Source: Chloroflexota bacterium (GTDB lineage Bacteria > Chloroflexota > UBA6077 > JAJPHF01). From it: a stretch of DNA of 64,000 nt. Position 1 is the first letter of the stretch. The number at the start of each line of letters is the position of its first letter. The stretch lies in contig DATGKN010000119.1 in NCBI GenBank assembly GCA_035294645.1, positions 8,972 through 72,971 on the forward strand, in the 5' to 3' direction. The position numbers and the translations under genes are program-made. The notes under the pieces were generated by a model, which ran no database searches, had not been told where the DNA came from, and was given only the letters and a program-made list of their open reading frames with translations. This document shows positions 3,176-47,891 of the stretch, piece after piece.

Positions 3176-4471
3176 TCAGCCCCTTCCCGGCGACGGCCAG
3201 CGGTCCCAGCCCAGCCGCGGGCGCTCCGGTGCCAGCGGGGGCGGGATAGCGAGCGGCGCGGCCTGCTCGTCCAGCCCGTGAAGCGGCTGCGCGCCTAGCT
3301 CGCGGCCGAAGCCCACCACCCACAGCCGCCCCAGCCCGCCCGGGTTCGTCAGCGTGTCCAGTGCGGCCAGCTCGCCGCGCTCGACCACCGCCGGCAGGCG
3401 CCCACCGCGCACGGTTTCTCGCCACGTGTCGAGCCCCAGCCGCCGCAGGAAGTCGGCCTGGCGCGCGAGGCCCAGCGGCGCGAGGCCCGCGGCGCGGCCC
3501 TCCAGCAAGAGGCTGGTCAGGTCGACCTGGCTGGTCAGATCCTGGCGGCCCACGCGCGCGTAGAGATTCTCGCTCAGCGCGTGCCGGGAGTAGCCGCGCA
3601 GGGTGCCGCGGGGATAGCGCGCCGAGTACAGCACCTCCGCCGGGTGCCCGTAGTCGATCAGCAGCAGGGCGCCCCGCCGCAGGCGCGCTGCCTGCGCTCG
3701 CAGCCAGGCCAGCGCCGCGAGGTTCACCTCGGCCAGGTGGTCGTCCGGGGGGCGCAAGCCGAGGCGCGCGAAGTAGGCGGCCAGCGCCGGGGTCGAGGGC
3801 GGGCCGTCGATCTCGGCGAAGCCGGCGTCCGCCAGCGTCACATAGCGCTCGTACAGCCCCCCCTGCCGCCACACCACACGATGGACAGGGAAAGCGTCGA
3901 GCAGCTCGTTGGCCAGCAGCACGCCCTCCAGCGCGGGAGGCAGCGGCGCCAGGCCGCCGGCCGCGGCCGCCTCCGGCGCGACCCACTCCACCTGCGCGCT
4001 CCACGGGCGCAGCTGGCGCTGCTGCCAGCGCCGGAGTGCGGCGCTGCGCTCTACCAGCCGGTAGCGTACGGCCGCGGCGAAAGCAGGAGCCTCGGCCTGC
4101 GCGGCGGTGAGGAAGTCGTGCGCCAGCCGCCCGCTGCCGCCGCCCCACTCCTCGACCACGAACGGGGCGGGCCGCTCCAACCGCTCCCACACCTCACGCA
4201 CCTGCCGCGCCAGCAGCGCGCCGAACGCCGCGTGCACCTCGGGGCTGGTGTAGAAGTCGCCGTGGGCGCCGGGCGGGGCCTGCAGGGCGCTATAGTAGCC
4301 CAGCGTGGGATGATAGAGCACCTGCTCCAGATAGGCCGCCACCGTGAGCGGCCCTTGCGCGCGAATGGCGGCGCGCAGGGCGGCGACCAGCCGTGGCCGG
4401 CTCTCTGTCCGCGCGTGGGTGCCGCTACGCCTCGACCTCGAAGATGCCTTCAATCTCGACCGCCATCCCAT
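3176..4471 (-). CDS. MidA/NDUFAF7-family SAM-dependent methyltransferase (DUF185)
   Basis: Conserved LEQVLYHPTLGYYS...GDFYTSPEVHAAFGALLARQ...VVEWGGGSG motifs. ATG start overlaps the upstream ridA 3' end by about 47 nt, so the start is uncertain. Confidence 0.75.
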   Translation of the reverse strand: MGWRSRLKASSRSRRSGTHARTESRPRLVAALRAAIRAQGPLTVAAYLEQVLYHPTLGYYSALQAPPGAHGDFYTSPEVHAAFGALLARQVREVWERLERPAPFVVEEWGGGSGRLAHDFLTAAQAEAPAFAAAVRYRLVERSAALRRWQQRQLRPWSAQVEWVAPEAAAAGGLAPLPPALEGVLLANELLDAFPVHRVVWRQGGLYERYVTLADAGFAEIDGPPSTPALAAYFARLGLRPPDDHLAEVNLAALAWLRAQAARLRRGALLLIDYGHPAEVLYSARYPRGTLRGYSRHALSENLYARVGRQDLTSQVDLTSLLLEGRAAGLAPLGLARQADFLRRLGLDTWRETVRGGRLPAVVERGELAALDTLTNPGGLGRLWVVGFGRELGAQPLHGLDEQAAPLAIPPPLAPERPRLGWDRWPSPGRG

Positions 4472-7662: not shown

Positions 7663-7944
7663 ATGGCCCAAGCCAGCACCGCGCCGACGCTGACGCGGCT
7701 CCAGGTGCGCATCACCCAGGAGGTGTTCCCTCCGTACCACGCGATGCACGGCACGCCCCACACCGTGGTGCAGCGGCTGTTCACCTTCGAATTCCCACAG
7801 GGCACGGCCGAGGTCGATCAGACCGACTACGGCCACCCCGGGCGGTTCAACCCCTGCCACGCGCGGCGCATCCCTACCCCGTTGCAGTCCAAGACGAACC
7901 AGATCGTGGCGGCCGCCGAGGCGCTGGCCGCGCTGCTCGACTGA
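7663..7944 (+). CDS. Small hypothetical protein (93 aa) downstream of rhodanese
   Basis: GGAGGGGAG RBS then ATG (MAQASTAPTLTRLQVRITQEVFPPYHAMHG...). No match to DUF1416/SseC or TusA that I can recognise. Confidence 0.45.
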   Translation: MAQASTAPTLTRLQVRITQEVFPPYHAMHGTPHTVVQRLFTFEFPQGTAEVDQTDYGHPGRFNPCHARRIPTPLQSKTNQIVAAAEALAALLD

Positions 7945-8054
7945 GGCACGGGCCTACCAGCGGGCCGCTCGCCTGTGGGCGGGCGGCCTGTTCTTTCGGG
8001 AGGGGACGAGCAGCCGGCTACCCGCCCGGCGCCCCCATGCCTGGGCGGATAGCG

Positions 8055-9299
8055 TCAGTGGACGCCGCACAGGAACGCGAGTGCGGCGCATGCGTGCACC
8101 TGGGCGGTGGTTAGCAGGTCATCGAGCGTGACGAACTCGTCGGGACCGCCCATGTGGTGCGCCGTCGGGCCATAAACGACGGTGGGGATGCCGGCCGCGC
8201 GGAAGTAGCGCGCGTCAGTGGCGCCGAGCCGCACCACGGGCAGCGCCGGCTCCCCGCGCACCGCCGCGCTGGCCGCCACCACCGCCCGCACGATCGGCGC
8301 GTCGGGGGGGGTGCAGTGCGGATCGAACCGCGCCAGCACTTCGACAGCGACCTCTTCGACGCGCGCCGCCGCCAGCCGCGCCTCCAGCGCCTCTAGCACC
8401 GCATCGGCCCGCAGCCCGACGGGCAGGCGGATGTCCAGCGTGGCCTCGGCCTGGTCGGCCACCAGGTTCGTGGAAGTCCCTCCCGCCAGGGTGCCGATGT
8501 TCACCGTCACGCGGTCGAGGATGGCGGGCGCCTCCTCGCCCCAGTGCATGGCCACCAGCGGGCGCTGCCGCTCCAGCACCGCCGCTACCCCCGGCGGCGT
8601 GGCGGGGACGAGCTCGCCCAGCGACTCGGCGACCATCAGAGCACGGACCAGGCGGGCCGTCGCGCTTTGGCGGGTGCCGTAGGCGGCGTGGGCCGCGCGG
8701 CCCCGGGCGCGCAGCCGCAGCCAGAGGCCCCCCTTCTCGCCGATGCCCACAGCCCAGGGGCCGCACTGGTCGCCGATCAGGCAGGCGTCGGCGGCGCGCA
8801 GGGCGGGGAGGTGGGCCAACAGCCATCGCGTACCCCAGGTGCCGCCCGCCTCCTCGTCGGAGGAGTAGCTGAAGGTCACCCGGCCGGGCGGCGGCTGCTC
8901 GGCCCAGAGCCGCGCTAGCAGCAGCGAGGCGGCGAGCCCGGCGCGCATGTCGCTGGCGCCACGCCCATACAGCCGCCCGTCGGCCAGCAGCCCGCCGAAC
9001 GGCGGCCGAGTCCAGCCCTCGCCCGCGGGGAAAGTGTCGAGATGGCTGTTGAGCAGCAGGTGCGGCCGCGCCGCTGCAGGCCCGAGCGTGGCCACGACAT
9101 TCGGGCGCTCGGGGTGCGGCGCGTGGACCTGCACGGCTAGCCCGGCCGCCGCCAGGTAGTCGGCGACGAAGGCGGCCACGGCGCGCGTGTCGCCCGGCGG
9201 GTTCTCGCTCGGGAAGCGCACGAGCCGCGCGCACAGCGCGACCAGCTCCGCCTGCCGGGCCGCGACAGCGGCCCGCAGATGCGCGTAGCACGGCTCCAT
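8055..9299 (-). CDS. M20 family metallopeptidase (ArgE/DapE-like deacylase)
   Basis: Typical M20 features: NSHLDTF, GRGASDMRAGLAA, SSDEEAGG, C-terminal dimerisation region. Start at the internal ATG (MEPCYAHL) with a GGGAGGGAG RBS. The longer track ORF (to 9857) is an upstream extension. Confidence 0.85.
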   Translation of the reverse strand: MEPCYAHLRAAVAARQAELVALCARLVRFPSENPPGDTRAVAAFVADYLAAAGLAVQVHAPHPERPNVVATLGPAAARPHLLLNSHLDTFPAGEGWTRPPFGGLLADGRLYGRGASDMRAGLAASLLLARLWAEQPPPGRVTFSYSSDEEAGGTWGTRWLLAHLPALRAADACLIGDQCGPWAVGIGEKGGLWLRLRARGRAAHAAYGTRQSATARLVRALMVAESLGELVPATPPGVAAVLERQRPLVAMHWGEEAPAILDRVTVNIGTLAGGTSTNLVADQAEATLDIRLPVGLRADAVLEALEARLAAARVEEVAVEVLARFDPHCTPPDAPIVRAVVAASAAVRGEPALPVVRLGATDARYFRAAGIPTVVYGPTAHHMGGPDEFVTLDDLLTTAQVHACAALAFLCGVH

Positions 9300-9436
9300 C
9301 CAAGCTCCCTCCCGCGCCGCGAACCCGGCTGTCCAGGGTATACAAAGTCGTGAGCAGTGGCGGCCAGCGTCCACGGTGTCATACATAATTTTGCCGAGAG
9401 TACGGTCGTCGTGGTGGTAAGCGCGCCGGTTGTCGA

Positions 9437-9465
9437 TTGACATGAAAAGAGGCGCCACGTATAAT
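9437..9465 (+). promoter_or_regulatory. Perfect sigma70 consensus promoter (TTGACA-N17-TATAAT)
   Basis: ttgaca at about 9437-9442, a 17-nt spacer, tataat at about 9460-9465. Sits in a 70% GC genome, immediately downstream of an AT-rich patch (catacataatttt, about 9378-9395). Confidence 0.7.
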
Positions 9466-9579
9466 CCCCCCATACCCGGGAGGGCCGCGGGGGTCCCTCG
9501 CGGGACAGACGCGGGATGGTCGAGCGGAGGGAGCATGCGCGCGGCGGCTCGCCTGGTGGCGCCCGGCGCGCCGTGGGAC

Positions 9580-9608
9580 GCCCTGTGCGGTGCACAGCGG
9601 CGTTTTTT
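9580..9608 (+). terminator. Intrinsic terminator/attenuator hairpin closing a ~135-nt leader
   Basis: CTGTGC-ggt-GCACAG stem followed by cggcgTTTTTT. Lies about 135 nt downstream of the consensus promoter and about 65 nt upstream of the SWIM gene start. Confidence 0.55.
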
Positions 9609-9671
9609 AGTTCCCTGCTCGGCCCGGGATGGCGCCCTGCAGGCAGGGCACTGCAAGCGGAGGTGGACGGC

Positions 9672-9938
9672 ATGCAGTCGAGCCTGATCGGCAAGATCCA
9701 GAAGGCCATCGTGTACGCGCGCGAGCCCGAGCGGGTCCGCTTCTCTCAATTCACGGCCACCTTCCGCGGTGAGCACGACTCGTACACGGTGCGCTTCGAC
9801 GGCAGCCGCTGGTCCTGCACCTGCGCCTTCTTCCCCGCTTGGGGCCTCTGCTCGCACACCATGGCCATCGAGAAGATGCTGGCTGCCATGCTGCCACAGG
9901 AGGCCCGCCAGTCGATGCCGGCGCCCGCCACGGTCTGA
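9672..9938 (+). CDS. Small SWIM zinc-finger protein (88 aa)
   Basis: C-x-C-x9-C-x-H signature (CTCAFFPAWGLCSH). GGAGGTGGA RBS before the ATG. The track ORF from 9516 is an in-frame upstream extension through the terminator. Confidence 0.6.
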   Translation: MQSSLIGKIQKAIVYAREPERVRFSQFTATFRGEHDSYTVRFDGSRWSCTCAFFPAWGLCSHTMAIEKMLAAMLPQEARQSMPAPATV

Positions 9939-10723
9939 GCGCCCCGCGCCAGCCAGCGGGCCTCGCGCTGGGCGCCGGGTTCTGGATCGCCGTCCAGTTC
10001 TTGACGCGCCTGCCGGCGCCCCAGCCCCACGTACAGTGCGTCGCCCAGCTCGGGGTGGCGCTGCCGTTTTTTCCCGCTGTCGGCTTGCTGCTCGGCGCGC
10101 TGCTGGCGGCGGGCGAGTGGGCCTTGCGGCCGCTGCTGGCGCCCACGGTCGTTAGCGCGCTGCTGGTGGCCGCGCTGGTGGTACTCACCGGCGCGCTGCA
10201 TCTCGACGGGTTGGTCGATACCTGCGACGCGCTGTGCCTGAACGCCGCGCCCACCGAGCGGCTCGCGCTGATGCACGATAGCCGCGCGCGCGACCCGGGC
10301 GCCATCGCCGCCTGCCTCTTGCTGCTGGGCAAGTTTGCCGCCATCCTCCTGCTACCCGAAACGGTCCGTACCAGCGCGCTGCTGGTCGCGCCGCTGGTGG
10401 GCCGCTGGGCCAACGTGGCGGCGTACTGGGGCTACCCCTACGCGCGGCGCACCCCGGGGGCGAGCCTCGCTCTCAAGCAGGGCGCCACGCGCGCGCGGAT
10501 GCTGGCCGCCACGGCGTTCACCTGCGGTGGCTTACTGCTCGTGCTGGGCCCGGCGGGCGGCCTGGTGCTGCTCGGCGCGGCCGCGCTGACCCATCTCGTC
10601 GCCTGCCTCAGCCGCCAGCGGCTCGGCGGGCTCACCGGCGACGTGTACGGGGCGATCACCGAACTGGTCGAGGCCGCTACCCTCGTGCTCGTCCCGCTAG
10701 CAGTCGGGGCCTACGGATCATGA
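9839..10723 (+). CDS. cobS: Adenosylcobinamide-GDP ribazoletransferase (cobalamin-5'-phosphate synthase), copy 1; start uncertain
   Basis: CobS motifs: VQFLTRLP and LHLDGLVDTCDAL. The only canonical in-frame start (ATG 9839) overlaps the SWIM gene by 100 nt. No ATG or GTG lies between the SWIM stop and the conserved N-terminal motif. Confidence 0.75.
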   Translation: MGPLLAHHGHREDAGCHAATGGPPVDAGARHGLSAPRQPAGLALGAGFWIAVQFLTRLPAPQPHVQCVAQLGVALPFFPAVGLLLGALLAAGEWALRPLLAPTVVSALLVAALVVLTGALHLDGLVDTCDALCLNAAPTERLALMHDSRARDPGAIAACLLLLGKFAAILLLPETVRTSALLVAPLVGRWANVAAYWGYPYARRTPGASLALKQGATRARMLAATAFTCGGLLLVLGPAGGLVLLGAAALTHLVACLSRQRLGGLTGDVYGAITELVEAATLVLVPLAVGAYGS

Positions 10724-11469
10724 GCCTGCTGGTGGCCTTGCAGTTTCTGACGCGCCTGCCGCTGCCGGCCGGCCTGCCGATCGCCGGGCCGGCGCTGGGG
10801 CGCGCACTAGGCTGGTTTCCCCTCGTGGGGGCCCTGCTGGGAGCGGTGCTGGCCGCCGCCGACTGGGCGCTGAGCCACGCGCTCCCGCGCGGGCTGGTCG
10901 ACGTGCTGCTGCTGGCGCTGTTGGCGTTGCTCACGGGCGGGTTGCACCTCGACGGATTCATGGATACCTGCGACGGGCTGTTCAGCTTGCGCAGCCCCGA
11001 GGAGCGCCTAGCCATCTTCCGCGACAGCCGGGTGGGCAGCTTCGGCGTGGTAGGGCTGACCACGCTGCTGCTGCTCCAGTGGGCCGCGCTGGGCGCTCTG
11101 CCGTCCGCCCACCGCGCCGGCTGTCTCATCGTCGCGCTGGCCACCGCGCGCTGGGCGATGGTGTACGCCATCGTGGCATTCCCCTACGGCCGCGCGGAGG
11201 GGTTGGGCCGTGTCTTCAAAGACCAGGCCGGGCCGCACGCCCTGCTGGTGGCCACGGCGCTGGGGGCGCTGATCGCGGGCGGGGTGCTGGGCGGGGTAGG
11301 ACTAGTGACCCTGGCGCTCGCAGCGCTCATCGCCTGGCTGTTCGCCCGCTACTGCCTCGGCCGCCTGCCGGGGCTGACAGGAGACACCTACGGCGCGCTC
11401 AACGAGCTGGTGCAGACGCTGCTGCTGGTGCTGCTGCCGCCACTGCTGCGCGGGCAGGGCGCGGGTTAA
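10720..11469 (+). CDS. cobS: Adenosylcobinamide-GDP ribazoletransferase, copy 2 (tandem paralog)
   Basis: MSLLVALQFLTRLPLP...LHLDGFMDTCDGL. ATGA start/stop overlap with copy 1. Confidence 0.85.
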   Translation: MSLLVALQFLTRLPLPAGLPIAGPALGRALGWFPLVGALLGAVLAAADWALSHALPRGLVDVLLLALLALLTGGLHLDGFMDTCDGLFSLRSPEERLAIFRDSRVGSFGVVGLTTLLLLQWAALGALPSAHRAGCLIVALATARWAMVYAIVAFPYGRAEGLGRVFKDQAGPHALLVATALGALIAGGVLGGVGLVTLALAALIAWLFARYCLGRLPGLTGDTYGALNELVQTLLLVLLPPLLRGQGAG

Positions 11470-11549
11470 GAATCGGTTGACGTTCGCGCCAACGCCCGCC
11501 TGGGGCCCGCCGGACTCTCTACCATAGGCTAGGGGAAGGAACGGTGAAC

Positions 11550-11999
11550 ATGCGGGGCCGTGCACAGGCAGCGGTCGAGTTCGCGCTGGTGCTGCCGCTG
11601 GTGTTGCTGGTGCTGGCCGGCACCATCGAGTTCGGCCGCGCGTTCTTCGCCTACGCCCAGCTGTTGCAAGCCGTGCAGGAGGGCGCGCGCTACGGCGCGC
11701 TGCTGGGCTACGCCACCAACGACGCAGCGATCACCGCGCGCGTGCAGCAGCTCGCGCCGGGCGGCAACGGCGATCCGGTGACGATCAGCGCCACGGTCAG
11801 CCCGACCGACTCCACGCCCGTGCCGGCCGCCAATCGCCAGCGGGGCAACGTGCTGCAAGTGGCGGCCACGCACCGGCATACGGTGCTGATTCCTTTGTTT
11901 CCGCTGAGCAGTCTGCGCCTGAGCGCCAGCGCGAGTATGGTCATCGAGACCAACCCCACCGCCTGGCTACCCGCACCGGCCGCCCCCCGGGAGGCCTGA
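11550..11999 (+). CDS. tadE: TadE/TadF-like pilus assembly (pseudopilin-like) protein
   Basis: N-terminal TadE motif AAVEFALVLPLVLLVLAGTIEFGRAF. GGAAGGAA RBS, ATG 8 nt downstream. Confidence 0.8.
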   Translation: MRGRAQAAVEFALVLPLVLLVLAGTIEFGRAFFAYAQLLQAVQEGARYGALLGYATNDAAITARVQQLAPGGNGDPVTISATVSPTDSTPVPAANRQRGNVLQVAATHRHTVLIPLFPLSSLRLSASASMVIETNPTAWLPAPAAPREA

Positions 12000-12002
12000 G
12001 CG

Positions 12003-12917
12003 ATGCGGGCGCGCGGGCAGGTCGTGGTGCTGGTCGCGGCGGCGCTACCGGTGCTGCTCGGCTTTCTCGGGCTCGCACTCGACGGGGGCTATTACTTCGC
12101 GGCCCGCGGCGCCGTGCAGTTCGCCGCCGACGCCGCCGCGCACGCCGCCGCGCAGGATGTGCAACTGGCGCAAGCCGGCAACGCGCTGTACTACGGCCGC
12201 GCCGCGACCGATGGCCAAACCGTAGGCCGCAACAACGTGGTGCCCCTGGAACTGACTGCTATCACCGTGGAGATCGCCTATAACGATTCGGCCACCGCGG
12301 CGCCCACCAGCAGTGGGTGGTACACGACCCTGCCGACTAGTAACACGCGCGCGGTGCGGGCGACGGTGCGCGCGCAATACCCCACGCTGTTCCTCAAGCT
12401 ACTGGGGATCCCGCTGGTCGGGCTCGAGCGCACGGCCGTGGTCAGCCTGGGCGGGAGCGGGCTGCTGCCGCTGGCGGTCTGTGTCGCCGAGATGCAGCAG
12501 TTCCCAGCGGGGCCCTGGACGATCTACCAGAACGGCAGCTCGCTGTGCCGGCCCGCGCCCGTGTTGCTCTGGGATGGCCTGGTCAACATCGACAACCAGC
12601 GCAACTGCGGCACCGGCAACAACAGCTACTACCAGTGGATCGTGCCGCGGCCCAGCGCGCCCGCGCCGCCCGGCACGACGGTCACCCTCGACACGCGCGG
12701 CTGCAGCGGTCGCATCGACAACTGGGTGACCCAGGCCGGGTACACCAGCGCCACCATCCTCGTGGTGGACACGAGCACGGTGCTGGCCCCGTTGTTCTTG
12801 CAAGCCACGGTGAAAGGGTGTCGCGACGTGCAGCTCGCCATCCCGCGCAACAACGTGATCACCGCGACCCCACTCGGCCCGGTCCGCGGCTGTAGCGCGC
12901 TGGTGCAGACCTACTGA
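12003..12917 (+). CDS. tadG: TadG-like pilus assembly protein with Cys-rich C-terminal domain
   Basis: N-terminal TadE/G-like segment (VVVLVAAALPVLLGFLGLALDGGYYFAARGAVQFAADAAAHAAA). Long C-terminal domain with several Cys. Confidence 0.7.
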   Translation: MRARGQVVVLVAAALPVLLGFLGLALDGGYYFAARGAVQFAADAAAHAAAQDVQLAQAGNALYYGRAATDGQTVGRNNVVPLELTAITVEIAYNDSATAAPTSSGWYTTLPTSNTRAVRATVRAQYPTLFLKLLGIPLVGLERTAVVSLGGSGLLPLAVCVAEMQQFPAGPWTIYQNGSSLCRPAPVLLWDGLVNIDNQRNCGTGNNSYYQWIVPRPSAPAPPGTTVTLDTRGCSGRIDNWVTQAGYTSATILVVDTSTVLAPLFLQATVKGCRDVQLAIPRNNVITATPLGPVRGCSALVQTY

Positions 12918-44513: not shown

Positions 44514-45869
44514 CTAGTAGACCTGCAGGTAGCGCTCGATCTCCCAGGGCGTGACCTGCTTGCGGTACTCATCCCATTCCTGGCGCTTGGCCTCCAGGAA
44601 CCAGTCGAACACGTGCTGACCGAGCGCCTCGCGCACCACGTCGTCGCGCTCCAGCTCGTCGAGCGCCTCGGCCAGCGAGGTGGGCAGCATGCCCACGGCG
44701 TGCTTGGCCATGGTCTGCTCGTCGAAATGGAACAGGTCCTCCTCGATCGGCGGCGGCAGCGGCAGCTGGCGCTTGATCCCGTCGAGGCCACAGGCGAGCA
44801 TCACGGCGAAGGCGAGGTACGGGTTGCAGCTCGGGTCGGGGCAGCGCAGCTCGATGCGGGTCGACGAGGGACGCCCCTTGGTGATGCGCGGTACCCGTAC
44901 CAGTGCCGAGCGGTTGATGCGCCCCCAGCTGATGTACACCGGCGCCTCGTAGCCAGGCACCAGCCGCTTGTAGGAGTTCACCAGCGGCGCCAGCACGGCG
45001 CACATGCCGCGCGCGTGGTGCAACAGCCCGGCCATGTAGTGGCGCGCGATCGCCGACAGGCCGTACTCGTTGGTCTCGTCGTGGAACAGGTTCTGGCCCG
45101 TGTGGATGTCGGCGAGGCTCTGGTGCGTATGCATGCCAGAGCCGGCCATGCCGTAGAACGGCTTGGGCATGAACGTGGCATACAGGCCGTGGCGCTCGGC
45201 GATCGCCTTCATGGTCACCCGGAAGGTAATCGCCGCGTCGGCGGTGCGCAGCGCCGGCCCGTAGCGGAAGTCGATCTCGTGCTGGCCCGGCGCCACCTCG
45301 TGGTGGCTCGCCTCGACGGTGATGCCCTGGGCCTCCAGGGCATTGACCATCTCCTTGCGCACCTCGGCGGCCTCGTCGGTGGTCACGTCGAAGTAGCTGG
45401 CCCGATCGTGCGGCAAGCTCTCGATGGCCCCGGGCCGGTCGCCGCGCAGCAGGAAGAACTCCAGCTCCGGCCCCGTTTGGAACAGGAAGCCCAGGCGCGC
45501 CGCCTCGGCCTCCATGCGCCGCAGCACATAGCGCGGGTCGCCGGCGAACTCCGTCCCATCGGGGGTGTACACGTTGCAGATCACCTTGGCCGTGGGGTTG
45601 CCGTCCTGCTCCCAGGGGATCGGCCCGAACGTGGCCAGGTCGGGCTCCAGGTACATGTCGCTCTCGTGGATGCGCGCGAACCCCTCGATCGAGGAGCCAT
45701 CGAACCACAGGCCGTAGTCGATGGCATCCTCGAACTTATGGATGGGGATAGTGATGTTCTTCACCACTCCGACGATGTCGGTGAACTGCAAGTTGACGAA
45801 CTTGACGCCGCTGCGCTCGGCCTGGCTGAGCACCTCCTGCTTCAGCTCGCGATTGGCCCGGTTGCTCAT
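44514..45869 (-). CDS. glnA: Glutamine synthetase, type I
   Basis: FDGSSIEGFARIHESDMYL...; full GS catalytic domain. Confidence 0.92.
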   Translation of the reverse strand: MSNRANRELKQEVLSQAERSGVKFVNLQFTDIVGVVKNITIPIHKFEDAIDYGLWFDGSSIEGFARIHESDMYLEPDLATFGPIPWEQDGNPTAKVICNVYTPDGTEFAGDPRYVLRRMEAEAARLGFLFQTGPELEFFLLRGDRPGAIESLPHDRASYFDVTTDEAAEVRKEMVNALEAQGITVEASHHEVAPGQHEIDFRYGPALRTADAAITFRVTMKAIAERHGLYATFMPKPFYGMAGSGMHTHQSLADIHTGQNLFHDETNEYGLSAIARHYMAGLLHHARGMCAVLAPLVNSYKRLVPGYEAPVYISWGRINRSALVRVPRITKGRPSSTRIELRCPDPSCNPYLAFAVMLACGLDGIKRQLPLPPPIEEDLFHFDEQTMAKHAVGMLPTSLAEALDELERDDVVREALGQHVFDWFLEAKRQEWDEYRKQVTPWEIERYLQVY

Positions 45870-47632
45870 CTGCTCCTATCCTCTCTAGCGTGTGCCACGC
45901 GGCTCGCCCGCGCTGCCTGTGCGCCGTTGACCGGCTCCCCGGCCGCGGCGCCGCTCGCCTCCACCACCTCCACCGGGCGCCGCGGCCCGGCCGCCGGCCG
46001 CAGGCGCAGGGCGACCTGCACGGCCAGCCGCACCTCAGGATCGTCCAGGTCGAGCCCGGCGATCGCCTGGATGCGGGCCAGGCGGTACAGCAGCGTGTTG
46101 CGGTGCAGGTGCAGCGCCTCGGCGGCGCGCACGTGGTTGCCGTGGTGGGCGAAGAACCCCTCCAGGGTGCGGATCAGCTCGGTGCCGTGGCGCTCGTCGT
46201 AGCTCTCCAGCGCCCCCAGGAACTCGTCGTAGAACGCCTGCAGCTCGGGCGAGCCGCGCAGCGGGAACAGCAGCCGGCGGATGCCCAGATCGGCGAAGTG
46301 GGTGGTCCGGCTGCCGCCGAGCAATGCTTGGCCGATGGCCAACGCCTCGGCGGCCTCGTGGTAGCTGGTGCTCAGCCCCGCCAGCCCCCGATAGGCGCGC
46401 CCGACGCCCAGCGAGACCGCCAGCCCTTCGAGCAGGCCCGCCAACGCCTGGCGCAGCGCCTCCGGCCCAGGCCCCCCGCGCGCCACCTCGGGGCCAGCGG
46501 GCACGAACACCACCACGCGCTCCTCTTCTTGGCGCAGCAGGTATGCCACACCGCGTTCGTCGAGCAGCCGCCGCAGCGCATCGCGCAGCCGCAGGCGGGG
46601 TTGCTCGACCGTGCTGCTATCGCCGGCCGGGCCGTGGTCGAGGGCGAAGGCCAGCGCGACGTGCTCGCCGTTTAGATCGTAGCCCAGCGCGCGCGCCCGG
46701 GCCGCCAGCTCGGCCTCGGACGCGAAGCGGCCGGTCAGCGCGGCGTCGAGCACATCGGCCTGCAGGCGGTACTCGGCCTCGGCCACGGCCCGCTGCTTGG
46801 CGATCTCCAGTGCGCAGACAATCGCCGCCGGGCCGATGATCAGGTGGTCCAGCTCGTCGCAGGCCGCCGCCGGTCCCACGGCGCTGAGGAACCCGGCCAT
46901 CGTACGCTTGAGCACGATCGGCACGATCACCCGCGCCAGGCCCGAGTCGCCCAACAGCTGCACCTGGGGGCTGGGGGCGTGGGCGCGCAGCTCCTCACGG
47001 CGGGGCCAGGGCAACTCGCGCGTGCGCGCTTGCAGCTCGGCGATCACCACCGCTAGCGGGGGGAGTGGCGCGTCGGCGCGCGGGGCCTGCGGCGCCGCGG
47101 CCTCCTGCACGAGCCCATACTCGTCCTGGATCACCACCAGCTTCTCCATCGTGTCGGCCAAGGCCTGCACGATGGCCCCGAGCCCGCGGTCTTCCAGCGC
47201 GATGCGCGTGAGCCGCTGGTAGGTCTCGTCGGCGCGCTGGCGCAGGTGGGCGCGGCGATCCACGATCAGCGCGACGATCGCACGTTCCAGATCCGCTGCG
47301 CGTACCGCCGCGGGCGCGACGAGTAGCGGCATGCCCGCCGCCTCGGCCGCCTCGACCAACGCGGACGGGGGCGGCTGCACCAGCAGCAGGCCCGCGACTT
47401 TGATCTCGTCGAGCAGGCCGACCAGCCGGCGGGCGCTCTCGCTGGTGACCGCCGGGGGAAGCGCCGCGAAAATCACCAGCTCGCCGGCTTCCAGCGAGCC
47501 GGCGGCGAGCGGGCGCGTACCCGCTACCCGAGCCCAGTGGACGGGACGCTGGAGGTTGGCCGCGCCGGCGAGGACCCGCGTGTCGGCGGGCAAGGCAAGG
47601 CGCATGATCTCCGCCAGGGTCAGCTGGCGCAA
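45866..47632 (-). CDS. PucR/CdaR-family transcriptional regulator, translationally coupled to glnA
   Basis: C-terminal PucR HTH (HGNHVRAAEALHLHRNTLLYRLARIQAIAGLDL). ATGA overlap with the glnA start. Candidate TTG start with AGAGAGGG RBS (ATG alternative at 47605). Confidence 0.75.
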   Translation of the reverse strand: MRQLTLAEIMRLALPADTRVLAGAANLQRPVHWARVAGTRPLAAGSLEAGELVIFAALPPAVTSESARRLVGLLDEIKVAGLLLVQPPPSALVEAAEAAGMPLLVAPAAVRAADLERAIVALIVDRRAHLRQRADETYQRLTRIALEDRGLGAIVQALADTMEKLVVIQDEYGLVQEAAAPQAPRADAPLPPLAVVIAELQARTRELPWPRREELRAHAPSPQVQLLGDSGLARVIVPIVLKRTMAGFLSAVGPAAACDELDHLIIGPAAIVCALEIAKQRAVAEAEYRLQADVLDAALTGRFASEAELAARARALGYDLNGEHVALAFALDHGPAGDSSTVEQPRLRLRDALRRLLDERGVAYLLRQEEERVVVFVPAGPEVARGGPGPEALRQALAGLLEGLAVSLGVGRAYRGLAGLSTSYHEAAEALAIGQALLGGSRTTHFADLGIRRLLFPLRGSPELQAFYDEFLGALESYDERHGTELIRTLEGFFAHHGNHVRAAEALHLHRNTLLYRLARIQAIAGLDLDDPEVRLAVQVALRLRPAAGPRRPVEVVEASGAAAGEPVNGAQAARASRVAHAREDRSR

Positions 47633-47891
47633 CGAGCAGCCCTCTCTGCGTCGACTGGCTGAGCGAGCAACTACAGCGACCGGGATGCGAGCAGCGGCGA
47701 CATCGGCGCGGCGGCAAGCCCCGAGCCTGTGCAAAGTATACGAGCCACACGGCGCGCTGGCAAGCCGCGACGCCCGCCACTAGGCCGTTACACCCAAGGC
47801 ATGTTGGGCGGGCAGCACGAATCCCGGTGCCGCTTGGCACCAACCGCTCCCGCATGGTACCGTGGAGGTGGCAGGAACGACGCCTGCTCGC

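Follow-up and report, generated by a model that had tools for sequence, protein, structure and literature searches.

A putative leader-peptide transcription attenuator upstream of a small SWIM-like zinc-finger gene in Chloroflexota

The window analyzed here is a stretch of 64,000 nucleotides (nt) from a Chloroflexota bacterium (contig DATGKN010000119.1, positions 8,972 to 72,971 of the forward strand). On its plus strand, a sigma-70-type promoter, a predicted leader of about 135 nt and an intrinsic terminator precede a gene for an 88-amino-acid (aa) protein with a SWIM-like zinc finger, behind which two cobS genes lie in tandem (Table 1). A preliminary description of this DNA had pointed out the promoter and the terminator and had proposed a riboswitch, an attenuator-controlled leader or a small RNA in front of a SWIM-cobS-cobS cluster. 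Comparison with related loci suggests that the SWIM-like gene is preceded by its promoter and 5' leader at positions 9437-9671 and that this leader probably functions as a ribosome-mediated (leader-peptide) transcription attenuator. With the attenuator, the preliminary description named the right kind of element, a conserved and cis-regulatory arrangement of promoter, ~135-nt leader and terminator, but it missed a conserved Shine-Dalgarno (SD) site and upstream open reading frame (uORF), which are the key component of the leader.

The promoter matches the consensus at all twelve positions (12/12; TTGACA, a 17-nt spacer and TATAAT at 9437-9465) and is, as previously stated, the only perfect copy in the window. 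When up to two mismatches are allowed, the whole 64-kb window, with a GC content of 72%, contains two matches to the pattern compared with 0.02 expected. Transcription is predicted to start near A9472, which gives a 137-nt transcript up to the end of the T tract, and no second promoter-like site was found between window positions 8500 and 10500.

A GC-rich hairpin directly followed by a U tract, the defining feature of an intrinsic terminator, is located at the end of this leader. The inner hairpin CTGTGC-GGT-GCACAG (9583-9597) lengthens past a bulged C into a CGCC/GGCG stem, so that the inner stem is followed by CGGCG and then by six T, and the fold energy with flanks is -19 kcal/mol. The distance between the T tract and the ATG of the SWIM-like gene, given as about 65 nt in the preliminary description, is 64 nt. 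Among 82 non-redundant leaders of related loci, a hairpin with a T tract above the score threshold is present in 63%, far above chance (1.5% of dinucleotide shuffles). The hairpins fold with a median energy of -22 kcal/mol, and 44 different sequences occur among 53 5' arms. The preliminary description had proposed a comparison of the homologous intergenic regions, and this comparison reveals a leader that is conserved in relatives, with compensatory double changes at 7 of the 10 stem pairs in 40 Dehalococcoidia-type leaders, in which the GCAC/GUGC core is nearly invariant. In an alignment of ten leaders from the window's own clade (the window, L001, L081, L129, L130, L136, L137, L082, L092 and L094; related loci carry the prefix L), the terminator sequence is invariant and the T tract is an uninterrupted run of T5-T7. 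In approximately 45 loci, the gap between hairpin and ATG measures just 18-26 nt, SD site included, so the SWIM-like gene can be transcribed there only through the terminator. This obligatory read-through identifies the hairpin as a cis-regulatory or leaky terminator rather than the end of an independent gene, and it speaks against the free-standing small RNA that had been suggested. The stem cores CCAGTG/CACTGG and GCAC/GTGC are common to distant groups, a degree of conservation that exceeds what hairpin formation alone demands; these shared cores could represent a protein-binding site.

The earlier statement that this is the only clear U-tract terminator of the window holds in part. Two further terminator-like sites, 7961-7998 (plus strand) and 47468-47502 (minus strand), also qualify, and among the sites listed for the window only 9576-9608 combines five consecutive T in its tail with a position between a promoter-like site and a gene start. 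The plus-strand site consists of a stem of 12 base pairs (bp), CGGGCCGCTCGC/GCGGGCGGCCTG, with the tail TTCTTTCG, and directly follows a small gene ending at 7944, while the minus-strand site combines a perfect 12-bp hairpin and a tail rich in T. The second-best promoter match of the window (TTGCCA-17-TATACT, 47735-47763, minus strand) stands 230 nt upstream of this minus-strand hairpin; both lie inside or beside an open reading frame (ORF) at 45866-47779 (minus strand), an arrangement that superficially resembles the SWIM leader.

For the comparison, a genome scan yielded 570 confirmed SWIM-like loci, of which 80 were kept, and 48 metagenome loci as well as further loci from exact look-ups were added. 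Most of about 130 Chloroflexota loci, with GC contents of 45-73%, share one layout: a sigma-70-like promoter, a leader of 80-250 nt with an SD-uORF pair, a hairpin with a T-rich tract and, finally, the SD site and ATG of the gene. Promoter and terminator are kept in relatives while their flanks diverge. In Ktedonobacteria-type loci (L014, L016, L018, L033, L052 and L069; at about 3520-3800), the promoter-uORF-terminator module lies approximately 230 nt upstream of the gene and is followed by a long second leader segment. Two loci labelled as Sphingomonadaceae or Proteobacteria metagenome-assembled genomes, L002 (JBLNDL010000093.1) and L008 (JAJPGT010000100.1), carry a Chloroflexota-type SWIM-like gene and leader and are possibly mis-binned or mislabelled.

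Apart from the terminator, the sole block conserved in the clade alignment is (C)GAGCGGAG-N4-5-(A/G)TGC(G/A), located at 9523-9539 of the window. It includes GGAGGGAG-C-ATG (9526-9537), with a predicted SD/anti-SD duplex of -10 kcal/mol, and thus the start of the uORF, whose ATG lies 41 nt before the terminator stem. After crossing the hairpin and the T tract, the uORF overlaps the first 16 nt of the SWIM-like ORF in the +1 frame of the latter. An SD site paired with a start codon recurs in every other group examined, in the form of GGGG-N6-ATGCAG in group B, GGAGGG-N5-GTGCGG in L008 and L105, GGAAGG/GGGAG-N5-6-TTG in L013 and L007, AAGGAG-N12-ATGCG(A/G) in L025 and L062, AAGGGG-N12-ATGCGG in L042 and GAGGGGA-N7-ATGC(A/G) in Ktedonobacteria-type leaders. 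An SD site and start codon with an ORF reaching the terminator are present in 31 of 51 leaders, compared with 14.8 +/- 2.8 in shuffled sequences (maximum of 24 in 300 shuffles). In 78% of the 63 non-redundant leaders examined for this, the start with the best SD site falls between 33 and 50 nt ahead of the terminator stem; about 22% would be expected if starts were spread evenly over the 83 nt searched. These starts are ATG in 33 leaders, TTG in 18 and GTG in 12. Since the choice of starts by SD energy alone returned spurious ORFs of 1-2 codons, a minimum of 8 codons was imposed.

In addition, the uORFs bear indirect, though mutually consistent, signs of being translated. Residues 3-10 are rich in valine (13%), alanine, leucine, threonine and isoleucine, and their mean Kyte-Doolittle hydrophobicity is 0.36 in the uORF frame versus -0.67 and -0.90 in the other frames. 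Within subgroups, the peptides are kept while the DNA changes, and third-position and synonymous changes are overrepresented. The group B peptide MQRP(R/P)KTP(I/F/V)(V/A)xxA(S/N)x* (asterisk, stop) shows pairwise differences of 22/22/40 by codon position, and 18 of 54 differing codons are synonymous compared with 7/51 and 13/63 in the shifted frames. For the Dehalococcoidia subgroup with the peptide M(R/C)L(A/V)VT(T/I/A)LLS(S/P)RKRST, the corresponding values are 10/21 versus 4/18 and 3/21. In six minimal leaders (L022, L026, L030, L055, L068 and L070), the uORF ATG lies 7-9 nt past the -10 hexamer, at exactly 9 nt in five of them, so that the transcript would begin at or next to the AUG and the uORF would be leaderless. 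The whole leader measures only 82-85 nt in L030, L055, L068 and L070, and examples of the peptides from minimal leaders are MLWLILRLG*, MLGLILHPR* and MIGSIPELI*.

The uORFs end close to the terminator or beyond it. In 48 of 50 leaders the stop codon lies within the stem, past it or at most 4 nt ahead of it, and in only 2/50 is it located further upstream; the 8-codon minimum limits what these stop-position statistics can show. A stop 0-2 nt before the stem is seen in group B and in L025, L062, L023, L040, L053, L059, L072, L136, L137, L016 and L033, other uORFs stop inside the stem or just past it, and those of the window, L004, L008, L105, L043 and L077 end with ...CSRA* 16 nt inside the SWIM-like ORF. 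Given such stop positions, the 5' terminator arm would be covered by a ribosome, whether it is still translating or already terminating.

Based on these features, the following sequence of events can be proposed. When RNA polymerase arrives at the T tract while no ribosome occupies the uORF, the hairpin would form and a transcript of about 135 nt would be released. A ribosome that has started at 9535 and follows close behind the polymerase would cover or unwind the 5' arm of the hairpin (9576-9588), and with this arm blocked the terminator would fail and SWIM-cobS-cobS would be transcribed. Read-through would thus depend on translation of the uORF, with the act and its timing being decisive and the peptide sequence largely irrelevant. 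It is likely that the act of translation matters and not its product, because the peptide is not conserved across groups and frameshifts separate close relatives. Candidate inputs are the efficiency of uORF initiation, the elongation rate on the first codons rich in Val, Ile, Leu, Thr and Ala, pausing of the polymerase and feedback by the SWIM-like protein. We infer the steps from translation of the uORF onward. The leader possesses an SD site, a start codon and a short ORF upstream of a terminator, as is characteristic of leader-peptide attenuators, and its ORF reaches and crosses the terminator as in the pyrBI type, a geometry that is not clearly less common when control frame +2 is considered. 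Antiterminator pairing and a run of regulatory codons, the hallmarks of the trp/his/ilv class, were not found in the leaders and uORFs compared. Since no antiterminator was found, direct occlusion of the hairpin by the ribosome is the best-supported model.

Several observations weigh against a leader-peptide attenuator. The transcription start, the 3' end and the translation of the uORF are all predicted from sequence, and without an antiterminator the model requires tight kinetic coupling or a polymerase pause. The strict SD criterion failed in 20 of 51 leaders, and SD sites are weak in AT-rich members. The coding signature stems from small, related samples, and the Wilcoxon tests on frame hydrophobicity (p = 3e-4 and 5e-6) ignore shared ancestry, which inflates their p-values. 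The peptide differs across groups, with the uORFs of the window, L001 and L081 crossing the terminator in three different frames; without cross-group conservation no sensing codon run can be named. A stop codon at the base of the stem is not clearly commoner than in control frame +2 (13/50 versus 8/41), and this position was therefore dropped as a special feature. Finally, 17 loci lack any leader, so the control is dispensable in some lineages, which have lost the attenuator or never gained it. Loci without a leader include L017, L020, L028, L035, L037, L045, L066, L080, L096, L097, L110, L113 and L115; in these sequences the SWIM-like gene is located at about 4001 or 1501, and its ATG is preceded at a distance of only 15-19 nt by a promoter-like site, T(G/A)GACA-17-TATACT.

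The riboswitch of the preliminary description is best considered together with a protein-bound leader. In both cases termination would be set by a factor bound to the leader or to the conserved GCAC...GUGC hairpin, either a ligand or a protein with affinity for RNA (possibly the SWIM-like protein), and the SD-like/AUG block would serve for RNA recognition and not as a translation start. The unusually strong conservation of the terminator stem, both within the clade and in its GCAC/GUGC core, would fit such a leader, as would the nucleotide-level conservation of the GAGCGGAG..ATGCG block and the group C leaders, in which the SD/start block is placed within a hairpin (GGGAUG..CGUA-loop-UACG..CAUCC) with some one-sided changes. 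In addition, SWIM domains are thought to bind nucleic acids. However, the ten clade leaders range from 110 to 194 nt, are mostly unalignable and have the terminator as their sole consensus structure, and the minimal leaders of some relatives (82-98 nt), which consist of a short ORF and a terminator and nothing else, are too short for an aptamer. RNAalifold, applied to the window's clade and four other groups, detected only local, group-specific hairpins upstream of the terminator. Pairing of the 5' terminator arm with upstream sequence as an antiterminator does not exceed that in shuffles (mean z = -0.45; 1 of 63 leaders above 1.64), and a repeated ACACCA inspected by eye as an antiterminator in group B is unsupported. 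Neither the window nor 18 related loci contain a match to an Rfam 15 family at the gathering score, and a search of 9300-9750 at E <= 10 returned nothing relevant; weak matches to mir-2005, sau-6072 and SOX2OT are attributed to chance. Cobalamin riboswitches (RF00174 and relatives) often lie upstream of cob genes and use terminators as expression platforms, but their families were likewise without a match at E <= 10, no B12 box is present, as the preliminary description had already remarked, no conserved structure reaches the size of an aptamer, and the element accompanies the SWIM-like gene rather than cobS. Moreover, the alternation of ATG, GTG and TTG and the frame-specific hydrophobicity are properties of translation and not of an RNA motif. 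A riboswitch or protein-bound leader is consequently unlikely; it is still noteworthy that the conservation of the stem and the group-specific start hairpin keep a protein-binding variant, such as feedback by the SWIM-like protein, alive.

The uORF and the hairpin might instead act on translation or on the fate of the mRNA, through re-initiation at or unfolding of the SWIM-like start or through a stabilizing or processing hairpin. The ...CSRA* uORFs that end inside the SWIM-like ORF point in this direction, as do Dehalococcoidia-type uORFs, which often end within 5-35 nt of the SD site of the gene, and the T tract of many AT-rich members, which is interrupted (e.g. UUCUUAAGUU). A T-rich tract nevertheless always follows the hairpin and is unbroken in the clade, a hallmark of intrinsic termination; where the uORF stops with respect to the gene start varies between loci, and the Ktedonobacteria-type module is too distant from the gene for re-initiation, all of which makes this explanation somewhat less probable still. 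That the region is a separate small gene with a leaky terminator at its end, whose product would be a ~135-nt small RNA acting in trans or a functional small peptide, is highly improbable. While a consensus promoter and a good terminator do bracket about 135 nt, subgroup peptides such as MRLVIITLS.. resemble small hydrophobic proteins and the Ktedonobacteria-type module stands well apart from the gene, the peptide is not conserved between groups and is frameshifted among close relatives (the window, L001 and L081; L038 versus L067, after codon 6), and the fold stability of 9472-9608 is unremarkable (z = -1.46). In addition, most loci have no room for a second promoter, and in all groups examined the module is strictly linked to the SWIM-like gene and shares its orientation. 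The least probable of the explanations is a classical amino-acid leader peptide of the trp/his/ilv type, in which the supply of branched-chain amino acids or threonine would be sensed via an antiterminator. The composition of uORF residues 3-10 is compatible with it, and MRLVIITLS, MRILIPIIK and MQRPRKTPIVVLA resemble ilv-type leaders, but single-codon runs and antiterminator pairing were not detected in the leaders compared, the regulated gene is not biosynthetic and the peptides of the window's clade (MRAAARLVAPG.., MQEPTAPPS.., MLRDLGPRRRR..) are non-hydrophobic.

The GC-rich 5' hairpin of the leader is not preserved in the clade alignment, and other high-GC groups have comparable 5' hairpins of altered sequence. 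Between terminator and gene, the block CCTGCTCGGCC (9614-9624) is conserved in L001 and L081, as is the 5' arm of a small hairpin in the same spacer. A scan for tRNA and tmRNA genes found none.

Table 1. Coordinates of the promoter, leader and neighboring genes in the window (nt).
Feature	Position	Strand	Remark
M20-family peptidase gene	8055..9299	-	divergent upstream neighbor; context, outside the element
-35 hexamer TTGACA	9437..9442	+	kept in relatives L001 and L081 though the sequence 5' of the hexamer diverges
-10 hexamer TATAAT	9460..9465	+	same-type promoter at the equivalent place in most of ~100 related loci
GC-rich 5' hairpin	9475..9504	+	structural only; L001 carries a different hairpin, CCCGCGCG..CGCGCGGG
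uORF SD site GGAGGGAG	9526..9533	+	within the conserved block GAGCGGAG-N5-ATGCG
uORF	9535..9687	+	ATG 9535, 50 codons (MRAAARLVAPGAPWDALCGAQRRFLV...), stop TGA 9685-9687
Intrinsic terminator	9576..9608	+	stem 9576-9605, core 9579-9602, loop GGT 9589-9591, bulged C9598, T6 9603-9608
Small hairpin GCCCTG-CAGG-CAGGGC	9634..9649	+	terminator-gene spacer; 5' arm GGCGCCCTGC kept in L001 and L081
SD site GGAGG of the SWIM-like gene	9659..9663	+	8 nt before ATG 9672
SWIM-like zinc-finger gene, 88 aa	9672..9938	+	start and invariant residues from homologue alignment
First cobS (cobalamin-5'-phosphate synthase, PF02654)	~9839-10723	+	start uncertain
Second cobS (PF02654)	10720-11469	+	tandem with the first

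The start of the SWIM-like gene at ATG 9672 is set by 53 aligned homologues, all of which begin with MxSSLIGKI, and the motif C49-x-C51-x8-C60-x-H62 (CxCx8CxH) is invariant among them. An N-terminal extension from ATG 9516 (140-aa ORF) was rejected, because the homologues begin at MxSSLIGKI and this ATG is absent in L001; in addition, the GC content at third codon positions is 0.73 in 9516-9671 compared with 0.92 in the gene. The match to the Pfam SWIM domain (PF04434) is below threshold (11.1 bits, E = 0.3; cut-off 19.6 bits), and searches of Pfam and NCBIfam for a function of the protein gave sub-threshold matches only. An AlphaFold model is confident (predicted local distance difference test score, pLDDT, 84), and Foldseek found no fold match for it in the PDB. 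The protein represents a Chloroflexota-wide family that is close to universal in the phylum.

Two CobS genes follow the SWIM-like gene, as originally described, and are probably co-transcribed with it. The order SWIM-cobS-cobS is kept in the window's clade (L001, L081, L082, L092, L094 and L137), and a cobS gene lies within about 1 kb of the SWIM-like gene in a few other high-GC lineages. In contrast to the proposed link with cobS, the gene behind the SWIM-like gene is convergent in 46 of 75 genome loci, and the neighborhood across these 75 loci offers no informative partner, with pyrF-like and dnaE-like genes further off. Because the leader accompanies the SWIM-like gene everywhere while synteny with cobS is limited, the leader is best assigned, on comparative grounds, to the SWIM-like gene and not to cobS or B12, and in this clade it probably also serves the cobS pair behind that gene. 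The two cobS ORFs overlap by 4 nt (10720-10723), and the tandem pair is also present in L082, L092 and L094. For the first cobS gene, no ATG, GTG or TTG occurs between the stop codon of the SWIM-like gene (TGA 9936-9938) and the conserved QFLTRLP motif (~9995); the only in-frame canonical start is TTG 9839, whose use would create an overlap of 100 nt with the SWIM-like gene, and in L137 the called CobS gene overlaps the 3' end of the SWIM-like gene by 16 nt. This arrangement could reflect the use of an unusual start codon, a frameshift or translational coupling. Directly 3' of the cobS pair, TadE-like and TadE/G-like pilus-assembly genes (11544-12917) have no evident link to the leader.

The closest mechanistic parallel to direct occlusion is pyrBI of Escherichia coli, in which the leader ORF runs into or through an intrinsic terminator and a close-following ribosome prevents hairpin formation without an RNA antiterminator. 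The leader ORF described here likewise reaches or crosses the terminator. In contrast, pyrBI governs the synthesis of pyrimidines and senses uridine triphosphate through pauses of the polymerase at a U-rich site, whereas the regulated gene in Chloroflexota encodes an uncharacterized SWIM-like protein, and the two leaders have no sequence similarity. To our knowledge, the leader-peptide attenuators described so far derive nearly all from Proteobacteria, Firmicutes and Actinobacteria and control genes for amino acids, pyrimidines or resistance. The leaders of trp, his, leu and ilv operons, as well as the ilvB-II uORF of Corynebacterium, a leader-peptide attenuator of an amino-acid operon (PMC10272879), share with the present leader a short uORF before an intrinsic terminator, and many of the peptides found here are rich in Val, Ile, Leu and Thr; unlike in trp/his/leu/ilv leaders, a regulatory codon run and a detectable antiterminator are missing and the downstream gene is not biosynthetic. 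Comparative genomics has also defined the motifs uORFC-8-2 (cysS) and uORFC-6-1 (hflX), which are read as ribosome-stalling sensors (PMC8632094). They resemble the Chloroflexota leader in their conserved intergenic combination of an SD site, a short ORF and a terminator stem, but involve other phyla, genes and sequences, and that study mentions neither SWIM nor Chloroflexi. In bmrCD (PMC4191407) and vmlR (PMC9226507), antibiotic-stalled ribosomes act via alternative RNA folds, and leaderless polycysteine uORF attenuators of mycobacteria carry runs of Cys codons (bioRxiv 10.1101/834739). As in these systems, translation of a short leader ORF would decide on premature termination, and the apparently leaderless uORFs of six leaders recall the mycobacterial ones; alternative folds and Cys codon runs were not seen here. 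In full-text literature searches, no account of such a leader in connection with SWIM, Chloroflexi or Dehalococcoides was found. The class of mechanism is familiar, and the leader itself is absent from Rfam 15.

A leader of this kind, conserved over a whole poorly studied phylum that includes Dehalococcoidia, Ktedonobacteria-type and high-GC lineages, provides a testable model of translation-coupled termination in Chloroflexota, in which the regulated protein is a small, near-universal zinc-finger protein. For annotation, it accounts for the recurrent 'orphan' terminator upstream of the gene and cautions against a B12 interpretation in the window. It also offers a clue that expression of the SWIM-like protein may be tied to translation. 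A more far-reaching and rather unlikely version is a Chloroflexota-specific sensor, autoregulatory or responsive to translation status, in which the SWIM-like protein would bind the SD/AUG block or the GCAC...GUGC hairpin in its own leader and thereby tune uORF translation or termination, or in which the uORF-terminator module would report global translation capacity and control a so far unrecognized translation- or nucleic-acid-associated factor. If true, this would provide the first functional handle on a protein family that is present in at least 570 species-level genomes.

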